In this document: piece after piece, positions 1,789 to 44,577 of the stretch
Layout: every line of letters starts with the position of its first letter
Position numbering within the stretch: position 1 is the first letter of the stretch
Assembly: GCA_963712165.1 (NCBI GenBank)
Contig: CAVQGY010000002.1
Coordinates: 134,611-198,610 of the forward strand
DNA length: 64,000 nucleotides
Origin: an uncultured Chloroflexia bacterium
GTDB taxonomy: Bacteria; Chloroflexota; Anaerolineae; Anaerolineales; UBA11858
Direction: 5' to 3'
The notes under the pieces: generated by a model
The model's database searches: none
Seen by the model: the letters and a program-made list of their open reading frames with translations, nothing else
Told to the model about the DNA's origin: nothing
Made by a program: the position numbers and the translations under genes

Positions 1789-1814
1789 CAAAAAAGAACC
1801 ACCAAAATGGTTCT
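1789..1814 (-). terminator. Intrinsic terminator ending the Mo-hydroxylase operon
   Basis: On the minus strand, an AGAACCA-TTTTGG-TGGTTCT hairpin is followed by a T-run. It lies about 170 nt downstream of the coxG-like stop and upstream of the permease gene. Confidence 0.55.
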
Positions 1815-1986: not shown

Positions 1987-2595
1987 TCAGGTCAAGCTGA
2001 ACAGCAAGATCAAGCCAATCACTGCCAGGATGCCAATCCCCACAGCCCATTTCACCCAGGGAGCTCCCAATAAATCCCGAGCCACTGCAGCTGCATAATC
2101 ACTTTCAGCGGCCTTTTGATACGAAACCTCCCGATCTTCCTCAGCAGCGGCCACACGTTCTGCCAAAACATTATCGAGTGTCTCAAAAGCCTGGCTGATG
2201 ATACTTTTAGCCACTGTATCGATCAAACGTTGCCCAACAGCAGCCAATTTACCCCCGATCTGAACTTCTCCAGTGTAGCCCATTAGGGTTTGATTATTGC
2301 TTTGAGGAGTAAGAGTAACATCCCCGGTTCCTTTCATGAAGCCTGGTTTTCCGCGCCCCTCAACTGTCATGGTATAGCTGACAGGGTGATCCTCATTGGA
2401 GATCACCAGCTGACCAGAGAACTCCCCCGCCACTGGACCTACGCGGACGTTCATGACCGCTTCGTAGGTATTTTCTCCAACCAGTTCCATCTTTTTTGTG
2501 CCCGGAAGGGCCGCAGCCATCACCTCGGTATCTCTGAACAGATCCCAGACTTGCTGCTGGGTGCCAATAAATATATGTTCTCCATCAACTTTCAT
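1987..2595 (-). CDS. CoxG-like SRPBCC protein with C-terminal membrane anchor
   Basis: MKVDGEHIFIGTQQQVWDLF...GPVAGEFSG is CoxG/SRPBCC-like, and the hydrophobic tail is WAVGIGILAVIGLILLFSL. I place the start at 2595, where GGAGGGAGGAAGAAG precedes the ATG. The ORF-track start at 2625 has no such site. Confidence 0.8.
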   Translation of the reverse strand: MKVDGEHIFIGTQQQVWDLFRDTEVMAAALPGTKKMELVGENTYEAVMNVRVGPVAGEFSGQLVISNEDHPVSYTMTVEGRGKPGFMKGTGDVTLTPQSNNQTLMGYTGEVQIGGKLAAVGQRLIDTVAKSIISQAFETLDNVLAERVAAAEEDREVSYQKAAESDYAAAVARDLLGAPWVKWAVGIGILAVIGLILLFSLT

Positions 2596-4942
2596 CTTCT
2601 TCCTCCCTCCGGTGGAGCAGCTCATATAGTCGATTTGGGCTCAGCGGCGTTTCCGTGATCTCCAGGCCAAATTCCTCGAAAGCGTTTTCCAGGGCCTGGG
2701 CAAAAGCAGCCGGCACGGGAATGGCTCCTGCTTCTCCTACCCCCTTTGTCCCTAATTTGTTATTGGGAGCTGGGGTATTTTCATGATAGACCTCAATTTT
2801 GGGCGGCATTTCTGTCGCGAATATTAACAGGTAATCCGCAAGGCTGGCATTCATCAGCTGACCATTCTCATCATAATGCAGCTTCTCATAATAAGCATTA
2901 CCTATACCCATGGATACACCGCCGTGGATCTGGCCTTCCACCACCAATGGGTTAAGCATGGTACCGCAGTCTTCCACGGTGATATATTTAAGGATCTTGA
3001 TCATCATCGTTTCCGGGTCCACTTCCAGGATCATGCCATGGACACCAAAAGCGGTCGCGCCGTAAGCAGGTCCAAAGTACTTGGTGGATTCCAGTCCCGG
3101 TTCAGTACCTGGCTCCACCGCTCCCCGGAAGGGATTGGCCAGTACGGCCAATTCTCCCAGGCTGATGGATTTTTCAGGGATATCAGCCACTCGAACCAGC
3201 CCATCCTCCAACTCCAGTTCCCCTTCCGGCGTTTCCAGGATCTTGCTGGCCAGCTTAAGGACTTTGATCCGCACGTCACTGGCAGCTGCCAAGACTGCAT
3301 TCCCGGCCACAACAGCTCCCCGGCTGGCAAAGGTACCAGTGCCCCAATGAATTTCCGCTGTATCACCAGAAACCAGGCTGACATCTTCCACTTCCACACC
3401 CAGCTGCTCGGCAATGATCTGGGCAAAGGAGGTCATATGGGATTGCCCCTGGGTGCCAACACCCGTGGCGGCGCTGATCTTTCCGCTTGGCTCAATGGCT
3501 ACCCGGGCTCCTTCATAAGGACCCACACCTGTGGTTTCAATGAAAGGCACCAGCCCAATTCCGACATATTTTCCTTCTGCGCGTAACCGGGGCTGCTCCT
3601 CTTTGATGAATTTTTCATATTCGATCTTTTCAACCGCTTTGTCATAAGCTGGCTGGTAGTTCCCGGAATCAAAGACCAGGTTGGTAAATGCCTGGTCAAT
3701 AATCTCATGGTCATATGGGAACTGGTCCGACTTGATGAAATTCAACCTCCGCACTTCGATGGGATCCAAGCCTAATTCTCTGCAGCCGATATCCAGCATG
3801 CGCTCAACAATATAGATCCCCTGGGGGCGGCCAGCACCCCGAACTGGTGTGGTGATGATCTTGTTCGTGAAAACTACCGAAAGCTCACTGGAGTAGTTCT
3901 TGACATCATAAGGTCCCATGGAATGAGACTGGGTATTGAGCGGGATCGTCAACCCATAGGGATCGTACGCGCCAGTATCATGAATGATGGATTGTTTGAT
4001 ACCCAGGATACGTCCCTCCTCGGAAAGGGCCATTTCTACTTCCTGGATTTGCTCCCGCTCCTGGGTTGTGGCGTAAAAGTTCTCCTTGCGGTCCTCGATC
4101 CACTTCACAGGCCGATCCAGCTTCATGGTCAGCCAGGGCAGCACCATTTCTTCAGCATAGAACATCATGATCTTTGGCCCAAAACCGCCCCCAACAAATG
4201 GCGCCACAACTCGCACCTGGTGGGTTCTCAATCCCAGGCGGGAGGCCAAACCGTTGCGGATGGGGATGGGAGACTGGGTCGCGTCCCAGACCATTAAATG
4301 TTGATTCTTCTTATCCCAATCCACCACTATGCCGCGGTTTTCCATGGCGGCCGCAGCTCCCCGGTCCAATTTGAATTTCCTTTTGAAGACCAGAGCTGCT
4401 TCTTTTTTCGCGGCTTCATAGTCTCCCTTATTCTGGACCAGGTGGGCAGCCAGGTTGGATTCCAGGTCGTCATGAACCAGGGTATGACCCGGCTCGAGGC
4501 ATTTTTCCAGATCGGTCACTGCCGGAAGCGGTGAATATTCAACATGTACCTCTTCCACCGCGTCTTCAGCGATATAGCGGCTTTCAGCCACCACAACAGC
4601 AATGATCTCACCCGCATGTTTGACCTTATCTTTAACCAAAGGAACCTGCCTGCGGGAATGGAAGACCACATCTTTCAGAGTAGGCGGCGGAGATACCAGC
4701 GGTGGACCGGGTTCCCAGTCATCCCCCATATCTTCTGCCGTAAAGATCCCCACCACTCCGGGAATCTCTTGGGCCTGGCTGATATCAATGCTTTTTATTC
4801 TCGCGTGGGCATAATCACTACGCACAAATGCGGCATGCAGCATATTGGGAAGATTGATATCTCCCACAAATAGCGCTCCCCCGGTCAACAGGCGGGGATC
4901 CTCTACTCGTTTCACTCGTTTGCCTATCACTTTGTAATTCAC
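2585..4942 (-). CDS. Molybdopterin-binding large subunit of a xanthine dehydrogenase/CoxL-family Mo-hydroxylase (form-II-like; substrate unknown)
   Basis: 785 aa with N-terminus MNYKVIGKRVKRVEDPRLLTG. The active-site loop reads PVRGAGRPQG (AYRGAGR-type), not the AYxCSFR loop of true CO dehydrogenases. It sits next to the 2Fe-2S and FAD subunits. Confidence 0.9.
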   Translation of the reverse strand: MNYKVIGKRVKRVEDPRLLTGGALFVGDINLPNMLHAAFVRSDYAHARIKSIDISQAQEIPGVVGIFTAEDMGDDWEPGPPLVSPPPTLKDVVFHSRRQVPLVKDKVKHAGEIIAVVVAESRYIAEDAVEEVHVEYSPLPAVTDLEKCLEPGHTLVHDDLESNLAAHLVQNKGDYEAAKKEAALVFKRKFKLDRGAAAAMENRGIVVDWDKKNQHLMVWDATQSPIPIRNGLASRLGLRTHQVRVVAPFVGGGFGPKIMMFYAEEMVLPWLTMKLDRPVKWIEDRKENFYATTQEREQIQEVEMALSEEGRILGIKQSIIHDTGAYDPYGLTIPLNTQSHSMGPYDVKNYSSELSVVFTNKIITTPVRGAGRPQGIYIVERMLDIGCRELGLDPIEVRRLNFIKSDQFPYDHEIIDQAFTNLVFDSGNYQPAYDKAVEKIEYEKFIKEEQPRLRAEGKYVGIGLVPFIETTGVGPYEGARVAIEPSGKISAATGVGTQGQSHMTSFAQIIAEQLGVEVEDVSLVSGDTAEIHWGTGTFASRGAVVAGNAVLAAASDVRIKVLKLASKILETPEGELELEDGLVRVADIPEKSISLGELAVLANPFRGAVEPGTEPGLESTKYFGPAYGATAFGVHGMILEVDPETMMIKILKYITVEDCGTMLNPLVVEGQIHGGVSMGIGNAYYEKLHYDENGQLMNASLADYLLIFATEMPPKIEVYHENTPAPNNKLGTKGVGEAGAIPVPAAFAQALENAFEEFGLEITETPLSPNRLYELLHRREEEDES

Positions 4943-4995
4943 TTCAGCACCTCATCTGGATATCTCATCAGACCAACTTTGGGTTTGTTCGGATC

Positions 4996-5469
4996 CTACC
5001 TCGCCTTTTCTGCGGCCAGTTTGACAGCATCAACGATATGCTGGTAGCCAGTGCAGCGGCAGAGAACTGTGGAAACCGCTTTCCGGATCTCTTCATCCGT
5101 CGGATCGGGGTTTTCTTCTAACCAGGGCACAAGTGTGGTCAGGAAACCTGGAGTGCAGAAGCCGCACTGGAGGGCATGAGCCTCACGGAATGCTTCCTGG
5201 AGAGGGTGCATATCATCAATAGTGCCTAACCCTTCCACAGTCAAGATCTCCTGGTTGTGGACCTGGGGCGCAAAAATCAGGCAGGACCGCACCGGAAATC
5301 CATTCAGCAGTACAGTGCAGGCACCGCAGACACCATGTTCACATCCCACGTGTGTCCCGGTCAAGCCTAAATCATTCCGGAGAAAATCGCTTAACAAGGT
5401 TCGGGGGTCCACAGTCTCTTGATAGACCACGCCATTTACCGTGACGGAAAGTTCAAATGTGTTTTCCAT
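4996..5469 (-). CDS. (2Fe-2S)-binding small subunit of Mo-hydroxylase (CoxS-like)
   Basis: 157 aa with two Cys clusters: CEHGVCGACTV and CGFCTPG...CRCTGY. Confidence 0.9.
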   Translation of the reverse strand: MENTFELSVTVNGVVYQETVDPRTLLSDFLRNDLGLTGTHVGCEHGVCGACTVLLNGFPVRSCLIFAPQVHNQEILTVEGLGTIDDMHPLQEAFREAHALQCGFCTPGFLTTLVPWLEENPDPTDEEIRKAVSTVLCRCTGYQHIVDAVKLAAEKAR

Positions 5470-5478
5470 GGTTATCTC

Positions 5479-6357
5479 CTATTTTCCGCCCTTTGCCCGT
5501 TGAAAAGCCTCTTCCAGAGCTCTCCGGGTGAGGATATTTGCCAGGTGGCGCCGGAAGTCAGCTGTGGCATGGATATCGCTGCCGGGATCGATCTCATCTG
5601 TGGAAGCCTTTTCTGCAGCGGCCTCGATCAGTTCGGAAGTCACCTCTTCTCCAATCAACATACTTGCCGAGCCAGGGGCAGAAACTGGACCATCTCCTGC
5701 GCTGAGATAAACCAGGCGGGCATTTGTGGGGCGATCCTTTTTGTCCAACGTGAGCAGAGCTGCCACACCCAGAAGGGCAAAATCATGGGACCGGCGAGAG
5801 ACTTCTTTGATAGACCAGCCAGATCGAATCGGCAGCGGAGGAATTTCAATTTCTACCAGCAATTCTTCCGGTTCCATGACAGTCATCAGCAAACCTACAA
5901 AAAATTCGCTGGCAGGGACCACGCGTTCAGCTCCCTGTTTCAATATCTTAAACTTTGCCTCCAGGGCAGTTGAGACAACAACCAGTTCTGCGGAAGCATC
6001 CGCATGGGCCAGGCTTCCTCCTATCGTCCCTCGATTTCTGATCTGGGTGGTAGCGATCAGGGGCATACTTTCATGGATCAGAGGAGCTATATCTTTCACA
6101 AGATCACTTCTTTCAAGTGAAGCATGACGGACCATAGCGCCCAACCGTAAATGATTCTTATCCTCCTGGATCTGGGCAAGCTCTGGGATCTGATTGATGT
6201 CCACCAGCACTTCTGGCTGGACCAACCGGAAATTCATCATCGGAACCAGGCTCTGACCGCCGGCAAGTACTTTGGCGTCATAGCCATGTTCAGCCAGCAG
6301 TGACAGCGCCTCTGGTACAGATCTGGGAGCATAATACTTAAAAGGTGCAGGTTTCAT
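5479..6357 (-). CDS. FAD-binding medium subunit of Mo-hydroxylase (CoxM-like)
   Basis: 292 aa. MKPAPFKYYAPRSVPEALSLL...AGGQSL...RNRGTIGGSLAHAD is typical of FAD_binding_5/CO-dehydrogenase flavoprotein subunits. Confidence 0.9.
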   Translation of the reverse strand: MKPAPFKYYAPRSVPEALSLLAEHGYDAKVLAGGQSLVPMMNFRLVQPEVLVDINQIPELAQIQEDKNHLRLGAMVRHASLERSDLVKDIAPLIHESMPLIATTQIRNRGTIGGSLAHADASAELVVVSTALEAKFKILKQGAERVVPASEFFVGLLMTVMEPEELLVEIEIPPLPIRSGWSIKEVSRRSHDFALLGVAALLTLDKKDRPTNARLVYLSAGDGPVSAPGSASMLIGEEVTSELIEAAAEKASTDEIDPGSDIHATADFRRHLANILTRRALEEAFQRAKGGK

Positions 6358-6414
6358 ATTGCCTCTCCATGCGTTTCAAGCCCTATTCAATTATTTATTT
6401 CTAAACCACAGTAC

Positions 6415-7285
6415 TCAGCCCACATCCAGCAGTGAGATCTCCCTCTGCAGGCAGTCTTCCAGGGAAGTCGGCTGTCTTCCCAGCAGCCAGTGCAGCATAC
6501 GGGGGTTGCCGGAAAATCCATGGTTCTGATAATGCAGGAACATTTTAACCAAAGTGGAGACCTGATAGGAACCCAGGCCAGATCTGGGATACCTGCTCCT
6601 GCCAATCCTCCAGAGAGATCTGCTCAGCCTGGATCTCTTTGCCCAGCAGTCTTCCAAGCAGAGAAGCGATCTCTTCTTGGGATGTTAATCCAGTACCGAC
6701 CAGCTGATAGACAGCCCCGGCATGGGTCCCTTCAGTCAGCACGATCGCTGCAACATCAGCAACATCGTGAAGATCCACCAGGCAGAGCCTGGTGCTAACG
6801 GAGTAGGGCACCTGGTAAATGCCCTCCCGACTGATCCTATCCAGCTGGTTTGTGATGTTCTGCATATAAGCGGTTGGCTGGAGAATGGTGAACGGAAGCC
6901 CGGAAGCGATCAACTGCTCTTCCACGCGCAGCTTCAACCAATGATGGGGCATATCCTCCAGCTGGGGATGCAAGACGGAATGGTAAACGAAGTGGTCCAC
7001 ACATTCACGGAAGGCTTCCTGGATGACAATTTGGCCGATTTCCACTTCTCGGGGATGAATATTGGGAGGAATATGATAAACCGCTTGCACACCCTGCATC
7101 GCGTTTTGCAGGTCCTCTTCACTCAGCAGGTCACCCAGAAGGGCATTCTCCGCTCCAGCCTCGATCACACTCGAACGGTGTTCCTCCTGGTGGATCAACC
7201 CCCGCACCCGGACCCCTCTGGCTGCCAATGATCGGATGACAGCTAAACCTGTTTTCCCGGCTGCACCGGTTACCAGTATCATCAT
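6415..7285 (-). pseudogene. NmrA-like NAD(P)-binding protein interrupted by a frameshift
   Basis: The N-terminal 246-aa ORF (6545..7285) has a Rossmann motif, ILVTGAAGKTGLAV. The conserved family C-terminus (GLGSYQVSTLVKMFLHYQNHGFSGNPRMLHWLLGRQPTSLEDCL) continues in another frame (6415..6657). The frame change maps to about 6560-6600. Confidence 0.7.
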
Positions 7286-7292
7286 CTACCCC

Positions 7293-8966
7293 TTATTCAG
7301 ATTCCTTGAAGGCTACAAACCTGGCCCAACAAGACGCCAATTCCATACCTTTTTGGATAAAACAGCCAATATAATAGCGTCCACTTTCCATCTTTGCCAG
7401 ATCGGTTCCCAGGTTTTCAGCATGGATAATGCCTTTCGGGAACAGATTCAGATGCATGTCCTGGTAATACTTATCGAGGGGATAGATCTCATCCCAACCA
7501 GCCCCATACTGCTCGATCAGTTTTTGATTGGCTTCCTCGAAGGTCTTGGGGTGCCAGATACGCTGTATGGTGTTCATGGGATGTTCCATAGCCACGCAGT
7601 CCACTGCCAGCCATTTGATATCCTTCTCGATGCACCAGTCTGCGAAATCGGGAGAGGGGCCTGGATGACGGATCATATAGCGGAATTCATCCGAATCCGG
7701 GCTGTTCCAACCATATTGGTGGTACCCGGTTTTGATCACGAGGATATCGCCTTTCCTGACATCCACAACCTGCTGGATCATTTCCGGCGTGTACACGCTG
7801 GTATCGGAGACGAACTTGGAAATATCCGCTACAACGCCCGGGCCAAACCATTTTTCAAATTTCGTTTCACCGATCGTTGAACCTGCCGCGTGAAAGTGCT
7901 TCTCGCCATCCATATGAGTTGCCAGGTGGAAGCTGGCCCGGCAGTGGGCATTATTACGGCCCAATCCGAAATACTGGCCGCCCACCCTTTTGGTGTAATT
8001 CACTGAAAGAGGCACATAATTCGCCCATTGAGGGGTTTGCACACTGAAGGGCAGGGTCATATCCAGCATGTGGATCTCTTTCATGCTGGCAAGGAATTCC
8101 TTTTCCTCCATGTCTTCCGGTGCCTGGAGAGCAACTGCCCGGCACCAGGAAGATTCCACTTCCATAAATGGAATGGGGAAGATCATGATCCAGGCCCTCT
8201 GATTGGCCAACTTACTAATCTGGCCGCCCAAGGATTCAGCCAGCAAAAGACCTGCTTTGGGCATGGTGATATGGGTCAACTTGTGATATTCCTCTGGTGG
8301 GAATAACTCATCCCAGCTGGCTCCATGGGTTACTTTTAATTTAGCTTCCGCTTTATCGAACTCCCGGGCATGCATATAGCGCAAATTGGTGTTCATGGGA
8401 TGCTCGGCGCTGCCGCAGTCTACTCCGATCAATTTCAGTTTTAAATCCAGGGCCCACTGAAAGAAATCCGGTGATGGGCCTGGGTGGCGCAGATAATATC
8501 CAAATTCCTTGTTCTCTATGCCGCCCTGTGCATCCGGATTGGGCACATCAGGCTGGTCCCAGCCGTGCTTATGATAGCCGGTGTTGATGATCAGGATATC
8601 GCTTTCTTTCACTTCAACCTTCGCGGTGATCATCTCCGGAGTATACAGGCTGTAATCCGAGACTTCCTCCGAGATATCGACCACCACTCCCTCACCGGAG
8701 AGATCAGTCAGGGGGATATCGGCGATCGCCCGGGCACCAGAGTGGAAAGCACGCGGACCTACCAGGTGGGTCCCGGTGTTATTGGACCACTCGATCTGTT
8801 GTCCATTGGCTCCCATTCCTCCCCCAAAGGACCCGGTCAATCTCTTGAAGAAATGCACCTGGAGCGGCATCTCCCCCGGATAAGGCGGTGTGAAGATGCT
8901 CATCGCCTGGGTCAAATCGTACATCCGGGCTTCATTCAGTAAATTGATAACATTCTCTCGTTTCAT
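7293..8966 (-). CDS. Tandem double cyclase-family (kynurenine-formamidase-like) metal hydrolase
   Basis: There are two homologous halves (VVVDISEEVSDYSLYTPEMI...RHPGPSPDFFQWA...VDCGSAEHPMNT versus VVADISKFVSDTSVYTPEMI...RHPGPSPDFADWC...VDCVAMEHPMNT). I place the start at 8966 (GGGGAGGAAAGAA precedes ATG MKRENV) rather than the ORF-track start at 9011. Confidence 0.8.
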   Translation of the reverse strand: MKRENVINLLNEARMYDLTQAMSIFTPPYPGEMPLQVHFFKRLTGSFGGGMGANGQQIEWSNNTGTHLVGPRAFHSGARAIADIPLTDLSGEGVVVDISEEVSDYSLYTPEMITAKVEVKESDILIINTGYHKHGWDQPDVPNPDAQGGIENKEFGYYLRHPGPSPDFFQWALDLKLKLIGVDCGSAEHPMNTNLRYMHAREFDKAEAKLKVTHGASWDELFPPEEYHKLTHITMPKAGLLLAESLGGQISKLANQRAWIMIFPIPFMEVESSWCRAVALQAPEDMEEKEFLASMKEIHMLDMTLPFSVQTPQWANYVPLSVNYTKRVGGQYFGLGRNNAHCRASFHLATHMDGEKHFHAAGSTIGETKFEKWFGPGVVADISKFVSDTSVYTPEMIQQVVDVRKGDILVIKTGYHQYGWNSPDSDEFRYMIRHPGPSPDFADWCIEKDIKWLAVDCVAMEHPMNTIQRIWHPKTFEEANQKLIEQYGAGWDEIYPLDKYYQDMHLNLFPKGIIHAENLGTDLAKMESGRYYIGCFIQKGMELASCWARFVAFKESE

Positions 8967-9014
8967 TTCTTTCCTCCCCAATCGGATAACCCTGGACTGA
9001 GCCAGAGGCAATCT

Positions 9015-10259
9015 TTACCCTATCTTGTAATGCTCCGCGAACGCTACCAGGGCTTCCTGGAACAGGCTGATCGGAGGCCGGACCAGTCCAGCACCTACCT
9101 GGCCAATGCCAGCTTCCTTGTGGGCGATCCCGGTATTGATCCGCGGGGTGATATTCTTTTCAACAATCTTGCGAAGATCCATCCCGGTAGGCGTACCCCT
9201 GAAGTCTAGGGGTGGGATAGTGAAATATTTATGCTCCGCGAAGGTGATCTCATACATTTCCAGAGTGGTATTGATAGCATCCTTGGGTGTTCCGCTGACA
9301 AAGTTAACGATTGCCGGCGCACTGGCCATGGCAAAACCACCTATGCCAGCTGATTCTGTGATGGTGCTGTCCCCAATATCCCCACTGGAGTCCTCTTCCG
9401 TATAACCCGGGAAATAAAGTCCCTTCGGAGTCGGTACCGGGGCGGTGAACCAGCGCTCTCCCAAACCGCTGATCCGGATCCCAAAATCCGTGCCATTACG
9501 GGCCATAACACTGACGATCGTGCTGCCCTCGATTCCGTGAGCGACATCGGACATGGCTTTGCAGGCAGCCATGACAGGATTGAGCACACTCAGCGCGTTT
9601 TCTCCCAGGAATGCCAGGACTTTTGAAGCCGCCTTGTTATCTTTAGCAACCGCGGTGATCAGGGGGGCCAGCTTGGCGGTGAACAGGATCGAGCCGGCTT
9701 TATTGCGGTTGTGGCCTTCATCGCCCATGTGCAGCGATTCCGCCAGCAGGGCCCGGATATCGATGCCCTCGCTGGACTCGATCGCATCCTTCAGCAAAGG
9801 AGCCATGACATCTTCCATCCAGCGCAGCTTGGCAATCACTTCTTCTGAATAGGCGCCATAGCGCAGCACCTTGCCGTAGCCTTCATTAAGGTTGGAATAG
9901 GTCTTATTTCCATGAGTTTTATTTTCCAGGATGTAGACCGACATCGATGGGCTGGTCAAACCTGCCATCGGCCCTACAGCCTGGTGGTGGTGGCAAGGCT
10001 CTAATTCAATCTCGCCGGACTCGACCAGTTTTTGGGCCTCTTTCATATCCTTGGCTTTGCCCTCGAAGATCAACGCTCCGGTGATTGCTCCCCGCATCGG
10101 GCCTGAAGCGCGGTCCCAACTAATGGGAGGTCCTGCATGCAGCAGTAGGTTGTCCCGCATTCCCGGGATAACATCGATGGCTTTGCCCATTCCAACCCAG
10201 ACGGGACGGGCCTCCATCATTCGTTCAACTGCTTCCTGATTGGCTTTTTCTATATCCAT
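9015..10259 (-). CDS. DUF1116 protein, YlbE/AllG homologue
   Basis: 414 aa. LLHAGPP...PCHHHQAVGPMAG...NLNEGYGKVLRYGAY...GIRISGLGERWFTAP...INTGIAHKEAGIGQVGAG closely tracks the E. coli YlbE pattern as I recall it. Confidence 0.85.
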   Translation of the reverse strand: MDIEKANQEAVERMMEARPVWVGMGKAIDVIPGMRDNLLLHAGPPISWDRASGPMRGAITGALIFEGKAKDMKEAQKLVESGEIELEPCHHHQAVGPMAGLTSPSMSVYILENKTHGNKTYSNLNEGYGKVLRYGAYSEEVIAKLRWMEDVMAPLLKDAIESSEGIDIRALLAESLHMGDEGHNRNKAGSILFTAKLAPLITAVAKDNKAASKVLAFLGENALSVLNPVMAACKAMSDVAHGIEGSTIVSVMARNGTDFGIRISGLGERWFTAPVPTPKGLYFPGYTEEDSSGDIGDSTITESAGIGGFAMASAPAIVNFVSGTPKDAINTTLEMYEITFAEHKYFTIPPLDFRGTPTGMDLRKIVEKNITPRINTGIAHKEAGIGQVGAGLVRPPISLFQEALVAFAEHYKIG

Positions 10260-10297
10260 TCCCAGCTCCTTTTCAACCAGACTAAGGCATTAAACTA

Positions 10298-11191
10298 TCA
10301 AGAATCCTTTTTTGTATATCGTTTACCCGGCTCGAACTTGGAGCGGGCTTCTTTCAGAATTTCCTCATAGAGGGCCAGGTTGCGGTCCTCGAGGTGATCG
10401 AACGGCTGAGGGCTCTTGCTGCCCCAGGTGATGTAGCGCAGGGGATCCGGATCCAATTTAGCGGCAATGATCTCCTCTGTACCCCGGGCCTGGGCCAGCC
10501 GCCAGGCAATCGGGTTAACGATCATGCTGTGTCCGAAATAATAATTGCCACCTGCATCCGGTCCAACCATATTCGTGCTGACCATATAGACATGGTTATC
10601 ATATGCCCGGGCGCAGTTTGTGATATACCAGATATCAAAGGACCGCAGCAATGCTGAGGGCCGGACAATCACTTCGGCTCCCTTTACAGCTAAGAGGCGC
10701 GACAGTTCCGGAAAATCCCCATCATAACAAATGATCATACCGATCATGCCCAATTCGGTTTCATAGACCTCGGCGCTGGTTCCAACTTCAGTCCAGCCCC
10801 CGAATTCCTTCCTCTCTCCCGGAAAGGGATGGGTCTTATCATAGATGCCGATGATCTGGCCATCAGGACCGATCAGAATCGACGCGTTCAGGATCCGTCC
10901 TTTTTCCCCAGCCCTGCGGTATGTTGGCCAGACCACATGAACACCCAGTTTCTGAGCCCTTTCCTGGATGGTTTCGGTCAAACTACCCGGAACCTCATCT
11001 ACCAGTTCCCATAAAGCATCAGCTGAGAGCCCAGTATCAAATCCGGTAGTCACCGTTTCAGGGAAGACCACCAGATCAGCCTGGTAATCTTCAACTGCTT
11101 TATCCAGCCATTTGACGCATTTGGCAATATTTTCCTGGGGTTTATTGGGAGTTATTGCGATCTGGACACAGGCGGCTGTAAATTCTTTCAT
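10298..11191 (-). CDS. Carbon-nitrogen hydrolase (nitrilase superfamily; amidase or N-carbamoyl hydrolase type)
   Basis: 297 aa with Glu in VVFPETV and the catalytic Cys context GMIICYDGDFPE. Confidence 0.85.
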   Translation of the reverse strand: MKEFTAACVQIAITPNKPQENIAKCVKWLDKAVEDYQADLVVFPETVTTGFDTGLSADALWELVDEVPGSLTETIQERAQKLGVHVVWPTYRRAGEKGRILNASILIGPDGQIIGIYDKTHPFPGERKEFGGWTEVGTSAEVYETELGMIGMIICYDGDFPELSRLLAVKGAEVIVRPSALLRSFDIWYITNCARAYDNHVYMVSTNMVGPDAGGNYYFGHSMIVNPIAWRLAQARGTEEIIAAKLDPDPLRYITWGSKSPQPFDHLEDRNLALYEEILKEARSKFEPGKRYTKKDS

Positions 11192-11207
11192 CAGGAAGTA
11201 TCTCCTT

Positions 11208-12941
11208 TTATCCTTTCATCTTTTCAAGCAGGGCAGCCAAATCAGTATTCCCGCCGGCTGCTGGTTTCCAATCAACCTGGATCACATCCCTTTCCTGGTC
11301 CTTCAGGGACTCGGTAAAGGATTCCAAACCAACGTTAATGGCTGCAAAGGGGCCGTTCACAGTCTCCAGGTCGATCCCGCTGAAATCCTTCTCGTCCTTG
11401 ACCAGATCCACTCCCTCAAGCCCACCCACCAGCTTTCCCGCATATCTAACCGCCTGGTCGCTGCTCAGGTAAACCTTTCCGCCAGCCTTTTCCAGAACTT
11501 CCCGTTGGGCAGCCATATCCTGGGGATCGAGGTCAGTCCCGGAGAGGGTGATCACCACATCCAGGCGCCGATTATTTTTACTCGCGCTCTTGATCGCAGA
11601 TTCGATCGCCGGCGCCAGCTCGCTGGCTGGATCGGGGTGAGAGCCATAACCCAGCACGACATCCAGCAGGATCAGGGCCACTTCGGGGTCAGCGGCTTCT
11701 GTTTCCAGACGCTGGATGCGGAGTTCGTTATCCATCATCGGATGCAAGCGTCCTACAGTGAATTCATCTTCCCCAAGGTCGACGATCGTATGCTCCTGAC
11801 TGATCAGTGAGTTCTCCAGCTTCTTTTCTTTGTTAATTGGCACATTGGAATAAAGATTGGGCAGCGTCTTATCAAGAATCAGCAGGGCTTCATAAGCCAG
11901 GGTGCCGCCAGAATACAACCCGCGCAAGTAACGCTGGCTGGGGTTGAATCCACCCAGATCCATCTCACCCTCCGCCAGCGGTGTTTCCGAATCGCTTTCG
12001 AGGGCCACCGCGGCCGCCGCAGTATCGTCAAAGGTGGAGGCGAAATAGAGATTATCGATCTCTTTTAAATTAGTCTGATAACCGATAAAATTCACCACGA
12101 CCGGTTTGGACAGCTCCCTGGCATAGGACAGGATACGGTCAGCAGTTACAGTATCGGGCGGCTTGGAGATCAGGACGATCACCTTCGTATCCGGGTCACG
12201 GTCCAGTAAATCCAGGGCCATGCGGGTGGTGATGCCGCCTACTTTGGAGGACAGATCCCGGCCGCCTGTCCCAATGGCATGGGTCAGTCCCCCGCCGTAG
12301 TGGTGGATGCGGATCGAGACCTGCTGCAATCCGGTTCCGGAAGCGGCCACCAGACCGATCGCTCCTGCCCGGGTTCGGTTGGCGAAGCCCAATCCTGTAC
12401 TCTTGACGATGGCTGTGCCGCAGTCCGGTCCCATTACAAGCAGGCCTTTACTCGCGCCCAGTTCTTTCAATTCGATCTCTTCCTCCACAGTGACGTTGTC
12501 ACTGTAAAGGAAAACGTGTTTTCCCAAACGCAAAGCCTCGCGAGAAACCCCGGCGGCATAACGTCCTGGGACAGAGATCAAGACCCAGTTTGCACCGGGC
12601 AGGGATTTGTCAGCTGACTCAAGGCTTTTGGGCAGGAAATCCTCCCCGGCACCTTCCCTGCTGCGCCGGGCAGTCACCAGTTCATCGACTTTGGAGATTG
12701 CATTTCGCGCTATTTTTTCGTCCTTGGCTTTGACCACGATCACCAGATCGTCGGCTTTGGCGACTTTGATCTCATCCACCAGGAGGCCGGTTTGGCCTAA
12801 TAGTTCTAGGTTGGCCTCCGTGCCCATCACTACCCCGGCGTCTTCTACGCCAGGAAGCTCAGCCAGGGAACGCTGAAGCTGCATCAGGACTACAGAATCA
12901 AAATATGCACCAGTGCGGATCTCAGTTTGAATAAATACCAT
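11208..12941 (-). CDS. FdrA/AllF-like protein (succinyl-CoA-synthetase-alpha fold)
   Basis: 577 aa. The N-terminus MVFIQTEIRTGAYFDSVVLMQLQRSL is characteristic of FdrA, and CoA-ligase-like GPDCGT and GTGLQQ segments are present. Confidence 0.85.
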   Translation of the reverse strand: MVFIQTEIRTGAYFDSVVLMQLQRSLAELPGVEDAGVVMGTEANLELLGQTGLLVDEIKVAKADDLVIVVKAKDEKIARNAISKVDELVTARRSREGAGEDFLPKSLESADKSLPGANWVLISVPGRYAAGVSREALRLGKHVFLYSDNVTVEEEIELKELGASKGLLVMGPDCGTAIVKSTGLGFANRTRAGAIGLVAASGTGLQQVSIRIHHYGGGLTHAIGTGGRDLSSKVGGITTRMALDLLDRDPDTKVIVLISKPPDTVTADRILSYARELSKPVVVNFIGYQTNLKEIDNLYFASTFDDTAAAAVALESDSETPLAEGEMDLGGFNPSQRYLRGLYSGGTLAYEALLILDKTLPNLYSNVPINKEKKLENSLISQEHTIVDLGEDEFTVGRLHPMMDNELRIQRLETEAADPEVALILLDVVLGYGSHPDPASELAPAIESAIKSASKNNRRLDVVITLSGTDLDPQDMAAQREVLEKAGGKVYLSSDQAVRYAGKLVGGLEGVDLVKDEKDFSGIDLETVNGPFAAINVGLESFTESLKDQERDVIQVDWKPAAGGNTDLAALLEKMKG

Positions 12942-12959
12942 AAATGATCTCTCAAGTCT

Positions 12960-14168
12960 TTAGATTATTTTTTTCGCCTCAAAATCGGCGACCTGCTCTG
13001 GGGAGTAGCCCAGCAGGTCGATCAAGATTTGATGGTTATGTTCTCCCAGGACTGGAGGTGGATGATGCACCTCAGCTGGCGTTCGGGAGAGTTTATATGG
13101 GAAGCCGGTCAGGGGGATCAGGCCGGCAGTGTTATGTTCCACTCTCTGTATAAATCCTCTATCCTCGCTCTGGGGGTGTTCAAAAACCTCTGGCAGGGAG
13201 TTGATCGGGCCGCAGGGCAGGCCAGCCTCCCGGATCAGAGCTAGCCAGTCCTCGGCATCCTTCTCCTTGAAAATCCCATTCAGAGTCGCAATTAGATCTG
13301 ATCGGTTCTTGACTCGTTCCTGGTTGGTCAGGAAGCGGGGATCTTCTTTTAATTGGGGATGGCTGATCGCATCACAAAGCTTTTCCCACTGGCGCTGGTT
13401 GGCTGCGCCCAGCACAAACCCTTTATCACGAGCCTGGAAGGGCTCATAGGGAGCGATATTGGGATGAGCATTGCCAACTCTCTCTGGCGCCTGGCCGCTG
13501 ACCAGATAATTCGAGGCAACATTGGCAAGCAGGGCTGCCTGGGTATCCAAAAGGGAGATATCGATCTGCTGCCCTTCCCCGGATTCCATCCGTTCATAGA
13601 TGGCAGCCAGAATGGCAGATGCGGCGAACATGCCGGAGGTGATATCGATGATCGGGATTCCCACCCGGGAGGGCGGTCCCTCTTTGGGTCCGGTGATGCT
13701 CATCATTCCCCCTTCCGCCTGGACAATGGCATCGTAACCCGGACGATCTTTATCAGGACCAGTGCGGCCGTAACCGCTGATCGAGCAGTAGATCAAACCC
13801 GGGTTGCCCTCTTTCAGGGCTTCATATCCCAGACCCATCTCATCCAAAACGCCGGTGCGGAAATTTTCGATAAAAATATCAGAAACCCGGACCAGTTTAC
13901 GGATGATCTCCAGTCCAGCAGGGTCCTTCAGATTGACTGTCAGGCTTCTTTTATTGCGATTTGCAGAGAGGAAATAGGCTGATTCACCGGGATAGGGCCC
14001 ATAGGGGTCACCTACAAAGGGAGGTCCCCAGCCGCGGCTTTCATCCCCCGCGCCAGGGAGCTCGATCTTGATCACATCCGCGCCAAAATCCCCCAGCATC
14101 ATGGTGCAGTAGGGACCAGCCATGGCCCGGGTAATGTCTACGATCCGGATATTTTTGAGGGCAGCCAC
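12960..14168 (-). CDS. Family III CoA-transferase (CaiB/BaiF type)
   Basis: 402 aa with RIVDITRAMAGPYCTMMLGDFGADVIKIE. It has a GTG start preceded by AAGGAG. Confidence 0.9.
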   Translation of the reverse strand: MAALKNIRIVDITRAMAGPYCTMMLGDFGADVIKIELPGAGDESRGWGPPFVGDPYGPYPGESAYFLSANRNKRSLTVNLKDPAGLEIIRKLVRVSDIFIENFRTGVLDEMGLGYEALKEGNPGLIYCSISGYGRTGPDKDRPGYDAIVQAEGGMMSITGPKEGPPSRVGIPIIDITSGMFAASAILAAIYERMESGEGQQIDISLLDTQAALLANVASNYLVSGQAPERVGNAHPNIAPYEPFQARDKGFVLGAANQRQWEKLCDAISHPQLKEDPRFLTNQERVKNRSDLIATLNGIFKEKDAEDWLALIREAGLPCGPINSLPEVFEHPQSEDRGFIQRVEHNTAGLIPLTGFPYKLSRTPAEVHHPPPVLGEHNHQILIDLLGYSPEQVADFEAKKII

Positions 14169-17167: not shown

Positions 17168-17739
17168 AAACAAGCTCCCGGCTAAAACCGGGAGCTTGTT
17201 TCAACCCAAGGCGCCCTAAAGGGCGCTTTCTATTTCTATGGAAGTTCCCACTGGTTGCTGAGAGGTCCTAATTGATGGTGTTCTTTTTGATTGATTATGT
17301 ACTTGATTAATCCAGGAAGATCCCGTTTTGAGACCGAAAACGCTCCATAACCTCCCTGCCAGCGAAATCCCAATTCAGGCCTGATCTGATTAGCAATGAC
17401 AAATGAAGTATATCCTTTTACTTCACCCACAATCACTGATACGCTAGCTGATGGATGAAGTTTGAAAAGTAGATGGACATGATCACCTGTGCAACCAAAA
17501 GCAAGTAACTCGGATTTAGCAGTCAATAATCTTTCCCGGATCATACTATCCAAGAATTTTTCGATTTCATTATCTATCCACTGATATCTTTTATAGGTTG
17601 TCCACACAATGTGAAAGTACAACTGAAGATAGGATGATCCCATTGATAACCCCCTTATCTGATACTTCCATCATACAAAAAACCAAGCCCCTCTTCCAGG
17701 GGGGCTTGGTTCGAATTAGCCCGCGGATTCATTCGCGGG
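17168..17739 (-). mobile_element. IS200-like (Y1 transposase) unit, copy 1, with sub-terminal hairpins
   Basis: tnpA is flanked downstream by hairpins at 17168-17201 (14-bp stem) and 17211-17226. Upstream hairpins lie at 17681-17711 and 17720-17739. The same four-hairpin architecture recurs at 19227-19781. Confidence 0.6.
17236..17643 (-). CDS. IS200/IS605-family Y1 (HUH) transposase-like protein
   Basis: 135 aa with HUH motif DHVHLLF, tyrosine motif WQGGYGAFSV and C-terminal KYIINQKEHH. Confidence 0.85.
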   Translation of the reverse strand: MGSSYLQLYFHIVWTTYKRYQWIDNEIEKFLDSMIRERLLTAKSELLAFGCTGDHVHLLFKLHPSASVSVIVGEVKGYTSFVIANQIRPELGFRWQGGYGAFSVSKRDLPGLIKYIINQKEHHQLGPLSNQWELP

Positions 17740-17815: not shown

Positions 17816-19130
17816 TTAGGGACTGACTACCCGCCCCATAAAGAGAATTGAATTGGTCTGGTGATCCCTGATAGCAAACAGGAACGGTCGGTCCACCGTC
17901 AGCTGGATCGGATTCTCAGGTGCAGACGTCAGTTTCATGATCACCGCTGTCGCTGCGGCTGCCTCTGTGCCCTCTTCATCCACCCCAATATAAGCTTTAT
18001 GGAAGACGTCTGAGATGAACAGGTCCTTATCTCCAGTCATACCAGAAAAATCTGCTGCGCCGCTGAAGGCTTCCGGCATGCCCATGGCTGCCAGGATCTT
18101 CGCCAGGCTGATCTCGGTCTCAAACTCGAATTTTGGGAATATCAATTGGACGGGGGCATATGTCATTTCAGAGATGATGTTTTCCAACTCCCGGCTGGAA
18201 AAACCACCCTCGAAATCCTTGAACGATCCCTCGTCTGGCATTAAAACCAGCATGGATACCTGTCCGCCCAGATAAGGAAGAGCCACGGCCTGGAAACCTT
18301 CTCCCTGGTAGTAGGGCAAACTAGCATCCGACCCCAGCCTCATCATTGGCACATCCAGCTCCTCTCCGTCCAGGCCATAGAAGATGCCATTTTCAGTGAG
18401 GGATTCCTCAAAAGGTTCCATCCAGGTCGCCTTGAAGTAGATAGCGTTGCTGAGCACCAGGCGGGTATCGGTTGTCACAGCACCCTCTGGGATCAAGTCC
18501 CTGATCTTTTCTTTGGTCTGATCACTAACCCAGCTGTTTATGGTTAGGCGGGATTCTTCTGGTGCCTGGATATAATCAAGCAGGCGCAGGCCGGCACCGT
18601 AGTTGACCGCCAGGGTATCCAGAAAACTCTCCTCAAATTGGAAATCCTTTTGACCCCAAATCGAATTGGCAATATTCAGCTGGAAGGGATCTCCTTGATC
18701 GTTCGGGATATCCAGCTCGGCCAGTCCCTCCAGGTATTGAGCCAGGGCGTTAAAACCGGCATGGAGTTGGCCATCATTTTCGAGGAAATGGAATACCGCG
18801 GCCATTTCCCTGGCCGTGTTCCCTTCTGCGCCGGCATAGGTCATCGCCAGAGCGGAGGAAATGCTGTAGGGTGAATAGAACAGGTTGCCTTTCAGGGAGG
18901 ACAGCTGTTGGTAAAGGTCCACAGCAAAAGCGTTGTTGCCTTCAGCCAGCTCAGCCAACTCATCCAGAGGATAAGTCCGCCAGATCTTCCCGAGAGAGCT
19001 CGGAAATGACTTCCTGGGGTTTATTTCCTTCCGGCAGAACGGAGCTCCCCTCTGAACAGCCAGACAGGACCATGATCCAAATTCCTGCCAGGACAAGATA
19101 GATGATATTTGATTGCTTTTGGGTCTTCAT
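17816..19130 (-). pseudogene. Serpin (serine protease inhibitor) with lipoprotein signal peptide, interrupted by a frameshift
   Basis: The serpin body (NLFYSPYSISSALAMTYAGAEGNT...GVDEEGTEAAAATAVI...VDRPFLFAIRD...FMGRVVSP) is in one frame. The signal/lipobox (MKTQKQSNIIYLVLAGIWIMVLSGC) is in another frame (18960..19142). The switch occurs between about 18962 and 19010. Confidence 0.75.
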
Positions 19131-19226: not shown

Positions 19227-19781
19227 GCTCCCGGCTGAAACCGGGAGCTATTCCAACCCAAACCACCCTGAAGGGTGATTTCTATGATTCCCATTCCATT
19301 TGTAGATCATCAGACCGATGGTGTTCTTTTTGATTCTCAATATATTTGATCAATCTCGGAATCTCTTTCCGGGAAACTGTAAGCGCACCAAAACCACCCT
19401 GCCAGCGAAAACCACCATCAGGATGAATCTGGTTAGCAATCACATAAGATGAATATCCTTTTATCTCACCGATAATCTCCGAAACACTGATAGCTGGGTG
19501 CATTTTTATCAGGAGGTGAACATGGTCTCTAGTACAACCAAAACAGATCACCTCGGATTGCTTTTCAATTACCTTCTCGTTGATCAATCTCCTTAGATCA
19601 TTCTCTAAATCGTCTGTAATCATTTCAAAGCGCTTATAAGTGCCCCAAATGAAGTGAACAAATAATTGATGATATGTAGATCCCATAAATACCCCCATTT
19701 CAACTATTAATCACAATACAATAAACCAAGTCACTCTTCTAGGGTGGCTTGGTTCGAAAAGGCCGGGGATTCATTCCCGGC
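19227..19781 (-). mobile_element. IS200-like (Y1 transposase) unit, copy 2
   Basis: Hairpins lie at 19227-19248 and 19264-19277 (downstream of tnpA) and at 19724-19754 and 19762-19781 (upstream). The unit is bracketed by the 16-nt direct repeat AACCGGGAGCTATTCC (19239-19254 and 19818-19833). Confidence 0.55.
19282..19686 (-). CDS. IS200-like Y1 transposase paralogue with Phe at the expected tyrosine position
   Basis: The HUH motif DHVHLLI is present, but the motif reads WQGGFGALTV (codon 19390-19392 is TTT). The start is set at the ATG homologous to copy 1 (GGGGGT then ATGGGATC). Confidence 0.8.
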   Translation of the reverse strand: MGSTYHQLFVHFIWGTYKRFEMITDDLENDLRRLINEKVIEKQSEVICFGCTRDHVHLLIKMHPAISVSEIIGEIKGYSSYVIANQIHPDGGFRWQGGFGALTVSRKEIPRLIKYIENQKEHHRSDDLQMEWES

Positions 19782-44503: not shown

Positions 44504-44577
44504 GGGCGGTTAGCTCAGCTGGTTAGAGCGTTGCGTTGACATCGCAAAGGTCGTTGGTTCGAGTCCAATACCGCCCA
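44504..44577 (+). tRNA. tRNA-Val (anticodon GAC)
   Basis: I folded a 74-nt cloverleaf by hand: acceptor GGGCGGT/ACCGCCC, D arm GCTC/GAGC, anticodon stem TTGCG/CGCAA with loop TTGACAT, T arm GTTGG-TTCGAGT-CCAAT and discriminator A. No CCA is encoded. Confidence 0.93.

Follow-up and report, generated by a model that had tools for sequence, protein, structure and literature searches.

In this study, we analyzed a 64-kb stretch of contig CAVQGY010000002.1 from an uncultured Chloroflexia bacterium (hereafter the window, meaning the entire stretch) and found that a compact operon of ten genes on its minus strand, at positions 1987-14168, probably encodes the oxidative catabolism of a nucleobase-like heterocycle via an acylurea that is cleaved by AllF and AllG. 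A more specific version, in which the substrate is a uracil-like base (most likely uracil or thymine) and the ureido group leaves as carbamoyl phosphate rather than as urea, is tentative, and we place it slightly on the doubtful side of an even call. Four lines of evidence support the route from uracil to malonate: a UraA-like permease, a malonamidase E2-like amidase, a MatB-like ligase, and the acylurea chemistry of AllF and AllG. A preliminary description of this DNA had proposed an uncharacterized, co-conserved operon for N-heterocycle catabolism, and this general claim was supported, by comparative inference, by synteny and by a literature search, since no open-access paper was found that assigns the cluster to a characterized pathway. 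The example offered there, from uracil through a barbiturate-type compound, ring cleavage, and decarbamoylation to a malonate-like product, was likewise supported by comparison, except that phosphorolysis is here a likelier mode of decarbamoylation than hydrolysis.

The ten open reading frames (ORFs) lie head to tail, with intergenic gaps of 18, 16, 38, 3, 7, 57, 9, and 53 nucleotides (nt) in operon order and one overlap, in line with the tightly packed, consecutive genes that had been described. The 3-nt gap, which precedes a fused double cyclase gene, becomes 48 nt when counted from the conserved ATG of that gene. Family assignment of the window proteins was based on Pfam and NCBIfam profile searches, and both agree with the gene identities given earlier, namely, a coenzyme A (CoA)-transferase, FdrA, a C-N hydrolase, DUF1116, a double cyclase, NmrA, the subunits of a molybdenum (Mo) hydroxylase, and CoxG. 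On the opposite strand upstream of the operon are acetyltransferase and methionyl-tRNA synthetase genes.

The preliminary description had asked whether FdrA, DUF1116, the double cyclase, and the Mo-hydroxylase co-occur across genomes. A scan of one genome per species detected the double cyclase in 388 genomes, almost all Anaerolineae, and the window proteins were then compared by tblastn with the 80 best of the 388 double-cyclase loci (given L numbers below), which derive almost entirely from metagenome-assembled genomes of Anaerolineae, with the addition of a single Candidatus Uabimicrobium chromosome. Of the 48 loci that have at least 6 kb of upstream sequence, 43 have AllG, and 38 have AllF, beside the double cyclase. 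In the set of 32 loci flanked by 9 kb on either side (the fully flanked loci), an orthologous large subunit of the Mo-hydroxylase (MoL) is present in 25, and AllF, AllG, and MoL occur together in 22. At least two gene orders were observed. Type A, the order of the window, reads CoA-transferase, AllF, (CN-hydrolase), AllG, double cyclase, NmrA, flavin adenine dinucleotide (FAD) subunit, iron-sulfur (FeS) subunit, MoL, and CoxG, followed by either an NCS2 permease or a Bmp-type ATP-binding cassette (ABC) transporter. Type B, found in Promineifilaceae and Ardenticatenaceae, reads FAD, FeS, (CoxG), (amidase), AllF, AllG, (single-domain cyclase), double cyclase, (flavin mononucleotide [FMN] reductase), MoL, and (ligase). 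These data indicated that the four genes are linked across Anaerolineae and that the linkage of AllF, AllG, double cyclase, and MoL persists despite the rearrangement of gene order. Selfish-looking small genes are inserted in many clusters with synteny unbroken, including those for PIN, PD-(D/E)XK, nucleotidyltransferase/HEPN, and 23S-rRNA-IVP proteins and for a 1,496-amino-acid (aa) kinase (L001, L043, L055, L072, L028, and others).

Because the same set recurs in dozens of genomes, chance assembly of the genes was rejected. A reading without any single pathway, in which a form II CoxL-type respiratory dehydrogenase stands beside unrelated hydrolase and transferase genes, would draw on the best NCBIfam model for MoL, that of the aerobic carbon monoxide dehydrogenase (CODH) group (860 bits, under the cut-off of 950), on the presence of CoxG, and on the ability of the double cyclase to stand alone. 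It is opposed by the absence of the CODH active-site loop, by a linkage that has outlasted both rearrangement and toxin-antitoxin or nuclease insertions, and by the recurrence of a linkage between MoL and AllH, AllF, and AllG in another phylum. We regard this reading as very improbable.

FdrA and DUF1116 are AllF and AllG, two subunits out of three in the Escherichia coli oxamate carbamoyltransferase. AllF (11208-12941, minus strand, as are all features of the operon) is related to the succinyl-CoA synthetase alpha subunit, scores 545.6 bits against NF004760 (cut-off, 433), and aligns with E. coli AllF over the full length at 38% identity (582 columns). It carries an HMA-like N-terminal domain, a CoA-binding domain, and a CoA-ligase domain and conserves the THAIGxGGRDLS loop; PF27530 is recorded on its homologues. 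AllG (9015-10259) matches PF06545 at 317 bits, a family formerly called DUF1116 that Pfam now names 'oxamate carbamoyltransferase subunit AllG'. Its identity to E. coli AllG (YlbE) is 49% over the full length, and an uncharacterized protein in the PDB, 3clq, matches it at an E value of 1.6e-132. In E. coli, FdrA, YlbE, and YlbF (AllF, AllG, and AllH) turn oxalurate and phosphate into oxamate and carbamoyl phosphate, a reaction that depends on all three genes, and the operon continues with the gene of the carbamate kinase AllK (Kim and Kim 2024, PMC11326118). Ureidomalonate is a homologue of oxalurate with one more carbon, which supports its phosphorolysis by AllF and AllG. On the basis of these alignments, we propose that AllF supplies the catalytic part of an acylurea phosphorylase (carbamoyltransferase). 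In phosphorolyzing an N-acylurea, it would share the chemistry of the E. coli enzyme exactly, with a substrate longer by one CH2, whereas the genetic context is different: the allantoin genes allBCDE in E. coli and Mo-hydroxylase, cyclase, and amidase genes in the window. An AllH gene (PF11392/DUF2877, 83.6 bits) adjoins the cluster, mostly in divergent orientation, in 8 of the 80 related loci, and AllH may be encoded elsewhere in this genome.

The domain content of AllF, together with the NCBI family name acyl-CoA synthetase FdrA, also allows a different reading, in which AllF and AllG resemble an adenosine diphosphate-forming acyl-CoA synthetase that activates a heteroaromatic carboxylate or conserves acyl-CoA energy, and the Mo enzyme works on a CoA thioester like furoyl-CoA dehydrogenase or 4-hydroxybenzoyl-CoA reductase. 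The window has neither AllH nor a carbamate kinase, the CoA-transferase gene is the first in the operon, and 4-hydroxybenzoyl-CoA reductase is among the solved relatives of MoL (255 bits), all of which would fit. Yet the only biochemistry on the AllF/AllG family shows carbamoyl transfer (PMC11326118), and AllH accompanies the cluster in 8 Chloroflexota loci and in both actinomycete loci described below. Furthermore, the CoA-transferase and the ligase are accessory, being present in 13 of the 32 fully flanked loci, and a nucleobase-type permease suits a free base better than a carboxylate. We consider an acyl-CoA synthetase role improbable.

Since a search for AllG homologues yielded only relatives of at least 81% identity and no distant contexts, the latter were sought by tblastn of AllG against annotated plasmids and chromids (7.3 Gb). 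In Embleya sp. NBC_00888 (NZ_CP108785.1; L087/L091), one strand encodes NCS2, FAD, FeS, MoL (44% identity), CoxG, and a CN-hydrolase (51%), and these genes are accompanied by a PucR regulator and then by divergent AllH, AllF, and AllG (52%). Genes for a carbamate kinase (7 kb away), a carboxyltransferase, and a family III CoA-transferase (40%) lie together on one strand at a distance of 7 to 11 kb. In Nonomuraea gerenzanensis (NZ_LT559118.1; L092), genes for two NCS2 permeases, FAD, FeS, and MoL (42%) are divergent from those for AllH, AllF, and AllG (51%); ORFs read on the minus strand between MoL and CoxG of this locus had no Pfam match, probably because frames were misread in the GC-rich DNA. 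The MoL proteins of these two actinomycetes are the top two of 184 plasmid and chromid matches to the window MoL, and the 7.3 Gb contain no close match to the window CN-hydrolase other than that of Embleya; other MoL relatives at about 40% identity (on Serratia and Variovorax plasmids) are in unrelated contexts. In Peptoclostridium acidaminophilum, PucR, two xanthine-type permeases, and a cysteine hydrolase are followed by AllH, AllF, AllG, and carbamate kinase, a module that fits AllFGH as a reusable unit for ureido removal in nucleobase catabolism. On a Rhodococcus ruber plasmid (NZ_CP145321.1; L089), two distant DUF1116 genes (about 30% identity) have within 12 kb genes for a cyclase-family protein, a hydrolase related to nitrilases, a cupin, and Rieske dioxygenases, which may represent another heterocycle-degradation cluster made from the same building blocks.

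Directly downstream of the operon, where the preliminary description had placed an NCS2 permease, a permease of the UraA/RutG (pyrimidine) type was found at 258-1610 on the minus strand. Its best NCBIfam model is uracil permease (223 bits; equivalog cut-off, 477), followed by RutG (169 bits) and xanthine permease (131 bits), all below their cut-offs. The protein matches UraA in the PDB (3qe7) at an E value of 1.5e-44, and F73, E241, H245, G289, and E290 (E. coli UraA numbering), which we take to be the uracil-contacting residues of UraA, are all identical. Judged by these scores, the permease is a relative of UraA and was not assigned as an orthologue. It follows coxG in 8 related loci at 84 to 87% identity.

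The permease bears on the question of whether the operon serves instead the end of a purine or allantoin route, in which AllF and AllG would act on oxalurate, the amidase would convert oxamate into oxalate, the CoA-transferase would form oxalyl-CoA, and the Mo enzyme would be of the xanthine- or urate-forming kind. The identities of AllG and AllF to the E. coli oxalurate enzyme (49% and 38%) speak for such a route, as do the oxalate enzymes Frc and YfdE within CoA-transferase family III (257 bits to YfdE) and the association of AllH, AllF, AllG, and carbamate kinase with xanthine-type permeases and PucR in Peptoclostridium. Against it, the permease scores higher with the uracil than with the xanthine permease model (223 versus 131 bits), a ligase in sister clusters matches MatB far better than oxalate-CoA ligase (387 versus 252 bits), and MoL is far from xanthine dehydrogenases (about 115 to 125 bits, versus 478 for QorL). 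Moreover, the Pfam assignments of the operon include no uricase, allantoinase, allantoate amidohydrolase, ureidoglycine aminohydrolase, or ureidoglycolate dehydrogenase, and E. coli AllD has no match in the window or in the loci. A purine route therefore appears hardly likely.

The Mo-hydroxylase has the complete three-subunit make-up of the xanthine dehydrogenase family: a large subunit with the molybdopterin cofactor (MoL, 2585-4942; PF01315, PF02738, and PF20256), an FAD-binding medium subunit (5479-6357; PF00941 and PF03450), and a 2x[2Fe-2S] small subunit (4996-5469; PF01799 and PF00111). Residues 366 to 373 of MoL read PVRGAGRP, and the CSFR motif of form I CoxL is not present, which agrees with the loop reported earlier in place of AYxCSFR. 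By this motif MoL is not a carbon monoxide dehydrogenase, and TIGR02416 gave 505 bits versus a cut-off of 991. The loop also differs from that of form II CoxL, presumably AYRGAGR. The closest solved relatives are quinoline 2-oxidoreductase (1t3q), CoxL (8uem), and KdhL (7dqx). With the non-CO branch of the CoxL/Qor/Kdh enzymes (1t3q and 6-hydroxypseudooxynicotine dehydrogenase, 7dqx), the window enzyme shares the three subunits, a form II-like RGAGR loop, and the presence of CoxG. We propose MoL as a candidate C6-hydroxylase of uracil or thymine.

The CoxG-like SRPBCC protein (1987-2625; PF06240, 86 bits) possibly starts at M11 (position 2595), and its C terminus, GIGILAVIGLILLFSLT, is a hydrophobic tail. 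According to recent work, CoxG is reportedly tethered to the membrane and has a role in the passage of electrons to quinone. Many related clusters carry a second, distant Mo-hydroxylase (FeS, 42 to 52% identity; MoL, 27 to 31%; sometimes FAD, 26 to 29%), located 3' of the permease in L008, L010, L012, L015, and L016 and between the double cyclase and NmrA in L028 to L031, L033, L037, L038, and L041. This enzyme may point to a further hydroxylation step or to another substrate; its expected position lies beyond the end of the window.

Ring opening is ascribed to the fused double cyclase, a metal hydrolase with two PF04199 stretches (7293-8966, 557 aa from the conserved ATG; a TTG start at 9011 is possible). 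The C-terminal half keeps the motif H347-x-x-T-H351-x-D353-x-x-x-H357 (H347-L-A-T-H351-M-D353-G-E-K-H357), which is invariant in 20 sequences, and the N-terminal half is degenerate (N62-x-G-T-H67-x-V). The mean column identity of these 20 members is 84%. Since an AlphaFold2 model was of moderate quality (predicted local distance difference test score, 70; predicted template modeling score, 0.78; motif regions 23-63 and 307-355 below 50), it was used for the fold class only, and its best matches were isatin hydrolases, which act on a lactam, followed by kynurenine formamidases (5nna, 4j0n, 4m8d, and 4cob; E values of about 1e-10). By analogy, we propose that the double cyclase is a ring-opening amidohydrolase and a functional analogue of barbiturase; this is the least secure of the assignments. 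As judged from sequence identities, the family is narrow and slowly evolving: relatives at 77 to 90% identity belong mostly to Anaerolineales, Promineifilaceae, and other Chloroflexota, and a library of 1.84 billion proteins clustered at 50% contained one other full-length close representative and two distant double-domain proteins (27%). An exact-sequence lookup of the window protein returned no record. One member is encoded at 10022-11689 of a planctomycete chromosome, that of Candidatus Uabimicrobium sp. HlEnr_7 (L042), where it is 80% identical to the Chloroflexota proteins and has unrelated neighbors. Its occurrence there without the cluster suggests horizontal transfer and a function independent of the cluster. 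The neighbors of the lone double-cyclase genes in L042 and L085 gave no functional clue.

The closest parallels to such a ring-opening step come from pyridine catabolism. PF04199 proteins have been proposed to open 2,3,6-trihydroxypyridine in the 2-hydroxypyridine pathway of Rhodococcus rhodochrous PY11 (HpoH) and in the pathway of pAO1 from Paenarthrobacter nicotinovorans (PKC), and an amidase follows in both cases, HpoI in R. rhodochrous PY11 and the nitrilase-family omega-amidase NIT in pAO1, where pkc shares an operon with kdhL (PMC6214936). Common to these modules and the predicted pathway is a Mo-hydroxylase that makes a polyhydroxylated N-heterocycle, a PF04199 protein proposed to open a C-N bond of the ring, and a nitrilase-family amidase that frees ammonia; in addition, KdhL of the pAO1 pathway ranks among the three solved structures closest to the window MoL. 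The window cyclase, unlike that of the HpoH and PKC modules, is a fused two-domain protein with a full metal motif in one half only, and the proposed ring is a pyrimidine instead of a pyridine, so that AllF and AllG must additionally remove a ureido group.

The remaining two steps were assigned to the amidase and the CoA-transferase. The nitrilase-superfamily CN_hydrolase protein (10298-11191; PF00795, 162 bits) has a candidate catalytic triad, read from its sequence, of E in PETVTTG, K in YDKTHPF, and C in ICYDG. It had been described as an N-carbamoyl or amide hydrolase; hydrolysis of malonamate is here a likelier role than that of an N-carbamoyl hydrolase. The family III (CaiB/Frc-type) CoA-transferase (12960-14168; PF02515, 455 bits) has the succinate-hydroxymethylglutarate CoA-transferase 9br6 as its best solved relative (378 bits), ahead of YfdE (257 bits) and Frc (about 200 bits), and it is proposed to activate a dicarboxylate end product, malonate or methylmalonate.

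Enzymes for malonamate and malonate were looked for after the acylurea hypothesis had been formed, and related clusters were found to carry them in other protein families. In 10 type B loci, an amidase-signature enzyme is encoded between FeS and AllF and replaces the CN_hydrolase; its best solved relative is malonamidase E2 of Bradyrhizobium (PDB 1ock; E value of 1.4e-52, 182 bits, near full length). Conservation of R158 of malonamidase E2 in this amidase was rejected as evidence, as we take the residue to belong to the amidase-signature motif in general. In L032, L077, L080, and L081, the gene immediately after MoL encodes an AMP-forming ligase whose best NCBIfam model is the malonyl-CoA synthase PRK07514, at 528.7 bits (cut-off, 558); the next family reaches 433 bits, or 96 bits less. 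The best PDB matches of this ligase are MatB (4fuq, 387 bits; 3nyq, 285 bits), and oxalate-CoA ligase scores 252 bits. Thus, malonamidase E2 and MatB are the closest relatives of the sister-cluster proteins found at the positions of the window's amidase and CoA-transferase, although identities to them are moderate and the window's own two enzymes belong to unrelated families. No locus combines the malonamidase-like amidase with a CN-hydrolase of the window type, and the ligase and CoA-transferase counts add up without overlap in the 32 fully flanked loci. Both patterns fit a non-orthologous replacement of the same two steps. Genes for SCP-x-type thiolase-like proteins (Thiolase_C_1) were seen in or beside five related clusters (L030, L049, L067, L074, and L081); the window has an SCP-x-type thiolase at 24466-25623, 10 kb from the operon, and the L005 cluster is preceded upstream by a DUF35 (ChsH2-type) gene (4852-5265).

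Taken together, these assignments suggest the following route. The UraA-like permease would take up the base, and the Mo-hydroxylase would hydroxylate C6 of uracil or thymine to give barbiturate or 5-methylbarbiturate, with electrons passing via the 2Fe-2S and FAD centers, and probably via a membrane-tethered CoxG, to quinone. The fused double cyclase, acting as an enzyme of the isatin hydrolase/HpoH type, would hydrolyze barbiturate to ureidomalonate (3-oxo-3-ureidopropanoate). Since AllFGH splits an N-acylurea and barbiturate opening gives ureidomalonate, phosphorolysis by AllF and AllG, with AllH encoded elsewhere, is predicted to yield carbamoyl phosphate and malonamate; the nitrilase-family amidase would then convert malonamate into malonate and ammonia, and the family III CoA-transferase would form malonyl-CoA or methylmalonyl-CoA. 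In sum, both ring nitrogens would be freed without urea or urease, one of them as energy-rich carbamoyl phosphate.

In the classical oxidative pathway, uracil/thymine dehydrogenase, a barbiturase of the AtzD/TrzD family, and ureidomalonase lead to urea and malonate; this route has been known since the 1950s in a few bacteria, later including Rhodococcus, and has been called rare (PMC3758960). The proposed pathway has in common with it that the base is oxidized first and that barbiturate, 3-oxo-3-ureidopropanoate, and malonate are formed. The differences lie in ring opening, which is assigned here to the fused PF04199 protein rather than to an AtzD-family barbiturase, and in the subsequent cleavage: ureidomalonase gives urea and malonate, whereas here the acylurea would be split on the other side into carbamoyl phosphate and malonamate, which explains the need for an extra amidase. 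No AtzD/TrzD barbiturase family appeared among the Pfam assignments of the operon, of the other scanned window proteins, or of the Embleya locus, although no query aimed at barbiturase was made. To our knowledge, no gene has been assigned to uracil/thymine dehydrogenase (EC 1.17.99.4), and no paper naming one was found in the open-access literature; the same search found no paper describing the cluster, the fused cyclase, or the proposed substrate of AllF and AllG. Each of the protein families is known, but the combination, the fused cyclase, and the AllF/AllG substrate are new as far as open-access papers show. That the cluster amounts to a complete oxidative pathway for pyrimidines that had not been assigned before, common among Anaerolineae and with an echo in actinomycetes, with a CoxL-like uracil/thymine dehydrogenase, a non-AtzD fused-cyclase barbiturase, and an AllFG(H) ureidomalonate phosphorylase, is a claim that we advance with reserve and hold to be rather doubtful as a whole. 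If true, it would provide candidate genes for uracil/thymine dehydrogenase and for a non-homologous barbiturase, as well as a second physiological role for AllF, AllG, and AllH, whose only known substrate is oxalurate. In that case, AllFGH would serve ring-nitrogen catabolism as a general module for the phosphorolysis of acylureas, and pyrimidine nitrogen could be gained without urease, with carbamoyl phosphate usable for ATP or biosynthesis. Anaerolineae are abundant in sludge, sediments, and soils, which would give such a pathway ecological relevance.

Several observations weigh against the uracil route. No feature of the MoL sequence points to uracil as the substrate. AllH and AllK accompany the E. 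coli system, yet tblastn queries of AllH from E. coli and of five AllH-like proteins from Chloroflexota found no match in the 64-kb window, and E. coli AllK had none in either the window or the 80 Chloroflexota loci; the missing AllH counts here because E. coli needs all three subunits. For the amidase of the window, no specific assignment was obtained, and its CoA-transferase is closest to a C5-dicarboxylate enzyme. The clues to malonate come from sister clusters and not from the window, and there malonamidase E2 leads an uncharacterized amidase by 10 bits only and the MatB-like ligase is under its family cut-off. With respect to the double cyclase, such high conservation (77 to 90%) is unusual for a catabolic enzyme, and in a minority of genomes the gene is found alone in unrelated neighborhoods (L042, L085, and others). 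It is also lacking from the Embleya and Nonomuraea loci, where ring opening would thus be carried out by something else, so its role in the window rests on analogy. Finally, the promoter, micro-ORF, and terminator described below could mean that the permease is under separate control, e.g., for salvage.

In an alternative reading, the same logic of hydroxylation, ring opening, acylurea phosphorolysis, amide hydrolysis, and acid activation operates on another N-heterocycle, such as a different substituted or modified pyrimidine, a hydroxypyrimidine, or a compound of the hydantoin or pyridone type, and the acid formed in the window is not malonate. MoL is nearest to quinoline, nicotine-pathway, and CoxL-type enzymes and offers no diagnostic residues, the CoA-transferase is nearest to a glutarate/hydroxymethylglutarate enzyme, many related clusters have a Bmp-type ABC transporter in place of NCS2, and the second Mo-hydroxylase of some clusters suggests two hydroxylations. 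The pairing of a PF04199 cyclase with a nitrilase-family amidase is, in addition, known from pyridine-ring catabolism. What speaks for uracil or thymine over such a substrate is that the uracil-binding residues of the permease are intact, that orthologous clusters carry MatB-like and malonamidase-like enzymes, and that a pyridine ring leaves no ureido group for AllF and AllG. On this evidence, another heterocycle is a possible but unlikely substrate.

The region between the operon and the permease gene was then considered. A hairpin at 1789-1814 (minus strand), which had been taken as the terminator of the operon, was recovered as an intrinsic terminator-like structure with a 13-pair stem and a U-run in both the minimum free energy and centroid folds. 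A role solely at the operon end is less certain, since two elements lie between the coxG stop and this hairpin: a sigma-70-like promoter on the minus strand (TTGACA-16-TAGAAT, 1941-1914; 11 of 12 consensus positions) and a 25-codon ORF (1903-1826, minus strand) whose ATG is 10 nt past the -10 box and whose basic peptide reads MGTHKRISNLQKHRGWILTVRDYKP. Both promoter hexamers are conserved in L008, L010, L012, L015, and L016, and their flanks diverge. The micro-ORF has the same start position in relatives: L008 and L016 have 26-codon ORFs with partial peptide similarity, and L012 shares the start and the N-terminal sequence, with a frame that appears to run on. A layout with a similar ORF at this position and two U-run hairpins is shared by L008, L012, L015, and L016, and the hairpin at 1789-1814 is conserved in relatives. 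With a promoter and a micro-ORF ahead of it, this hairpin may terminate a small leader unit, either alone or together with the operon. The unit could be a leader-peptide or uridine triphosphate-sensitive attenuator for the uracil-type permease, or a small-protein gene. Between coxG and the permease gene, searches with Rfam, over the whole window and at a relaxed threshold over 1500-2100, detected neither a riboswitch nor a known leader; the only match at threshold in the window was a tRNA at 44504-44577.

The NmrA-like gene (PF05368, 90 bits), for an NAD(P)-binding protein, belongs to the family that had been named, and it is not intact. Its ORF spans 6545-7285 on the minus strand, or 6415-7285 with the frameshifted remainder, and the 57-nt gap given above is valid only when the pieces are joined. 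The frameshift was located by tblastn with a 288-aa homologue from L003, which aligns in frame -1 up to position 6587, whereas its alignment in frame -2 begins at about 6600 and extends to 6427, placing the break near 6588-6596 within a CCC run. The C-terminal 58 aa run on in the other frame down to 6415, and homologues are intact at 288 aa. The frameshift represents either an assembly error or a pseudogene. The gene is present in 13 of the 32 fully flanked loci, and an FMN reductase occupies its place in L001/L052; we tentatively regard the protein as accessory, perhaps a reductase.

Pfam scanning beyond the operon covered 14.4 to 53 kb of the window, and the genes in this part are housekeeping genes or are unrelated to the operon. 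Near mutS2, a gene for a bacterial serpin (17816-19096) is enclosed by two IS200/IS605-type Y1 transposase genes (17236-17643 and 19282-19698), and the same serpin, Y1 transposase, and MutS2 neighborhood is present on the related L002 contig.

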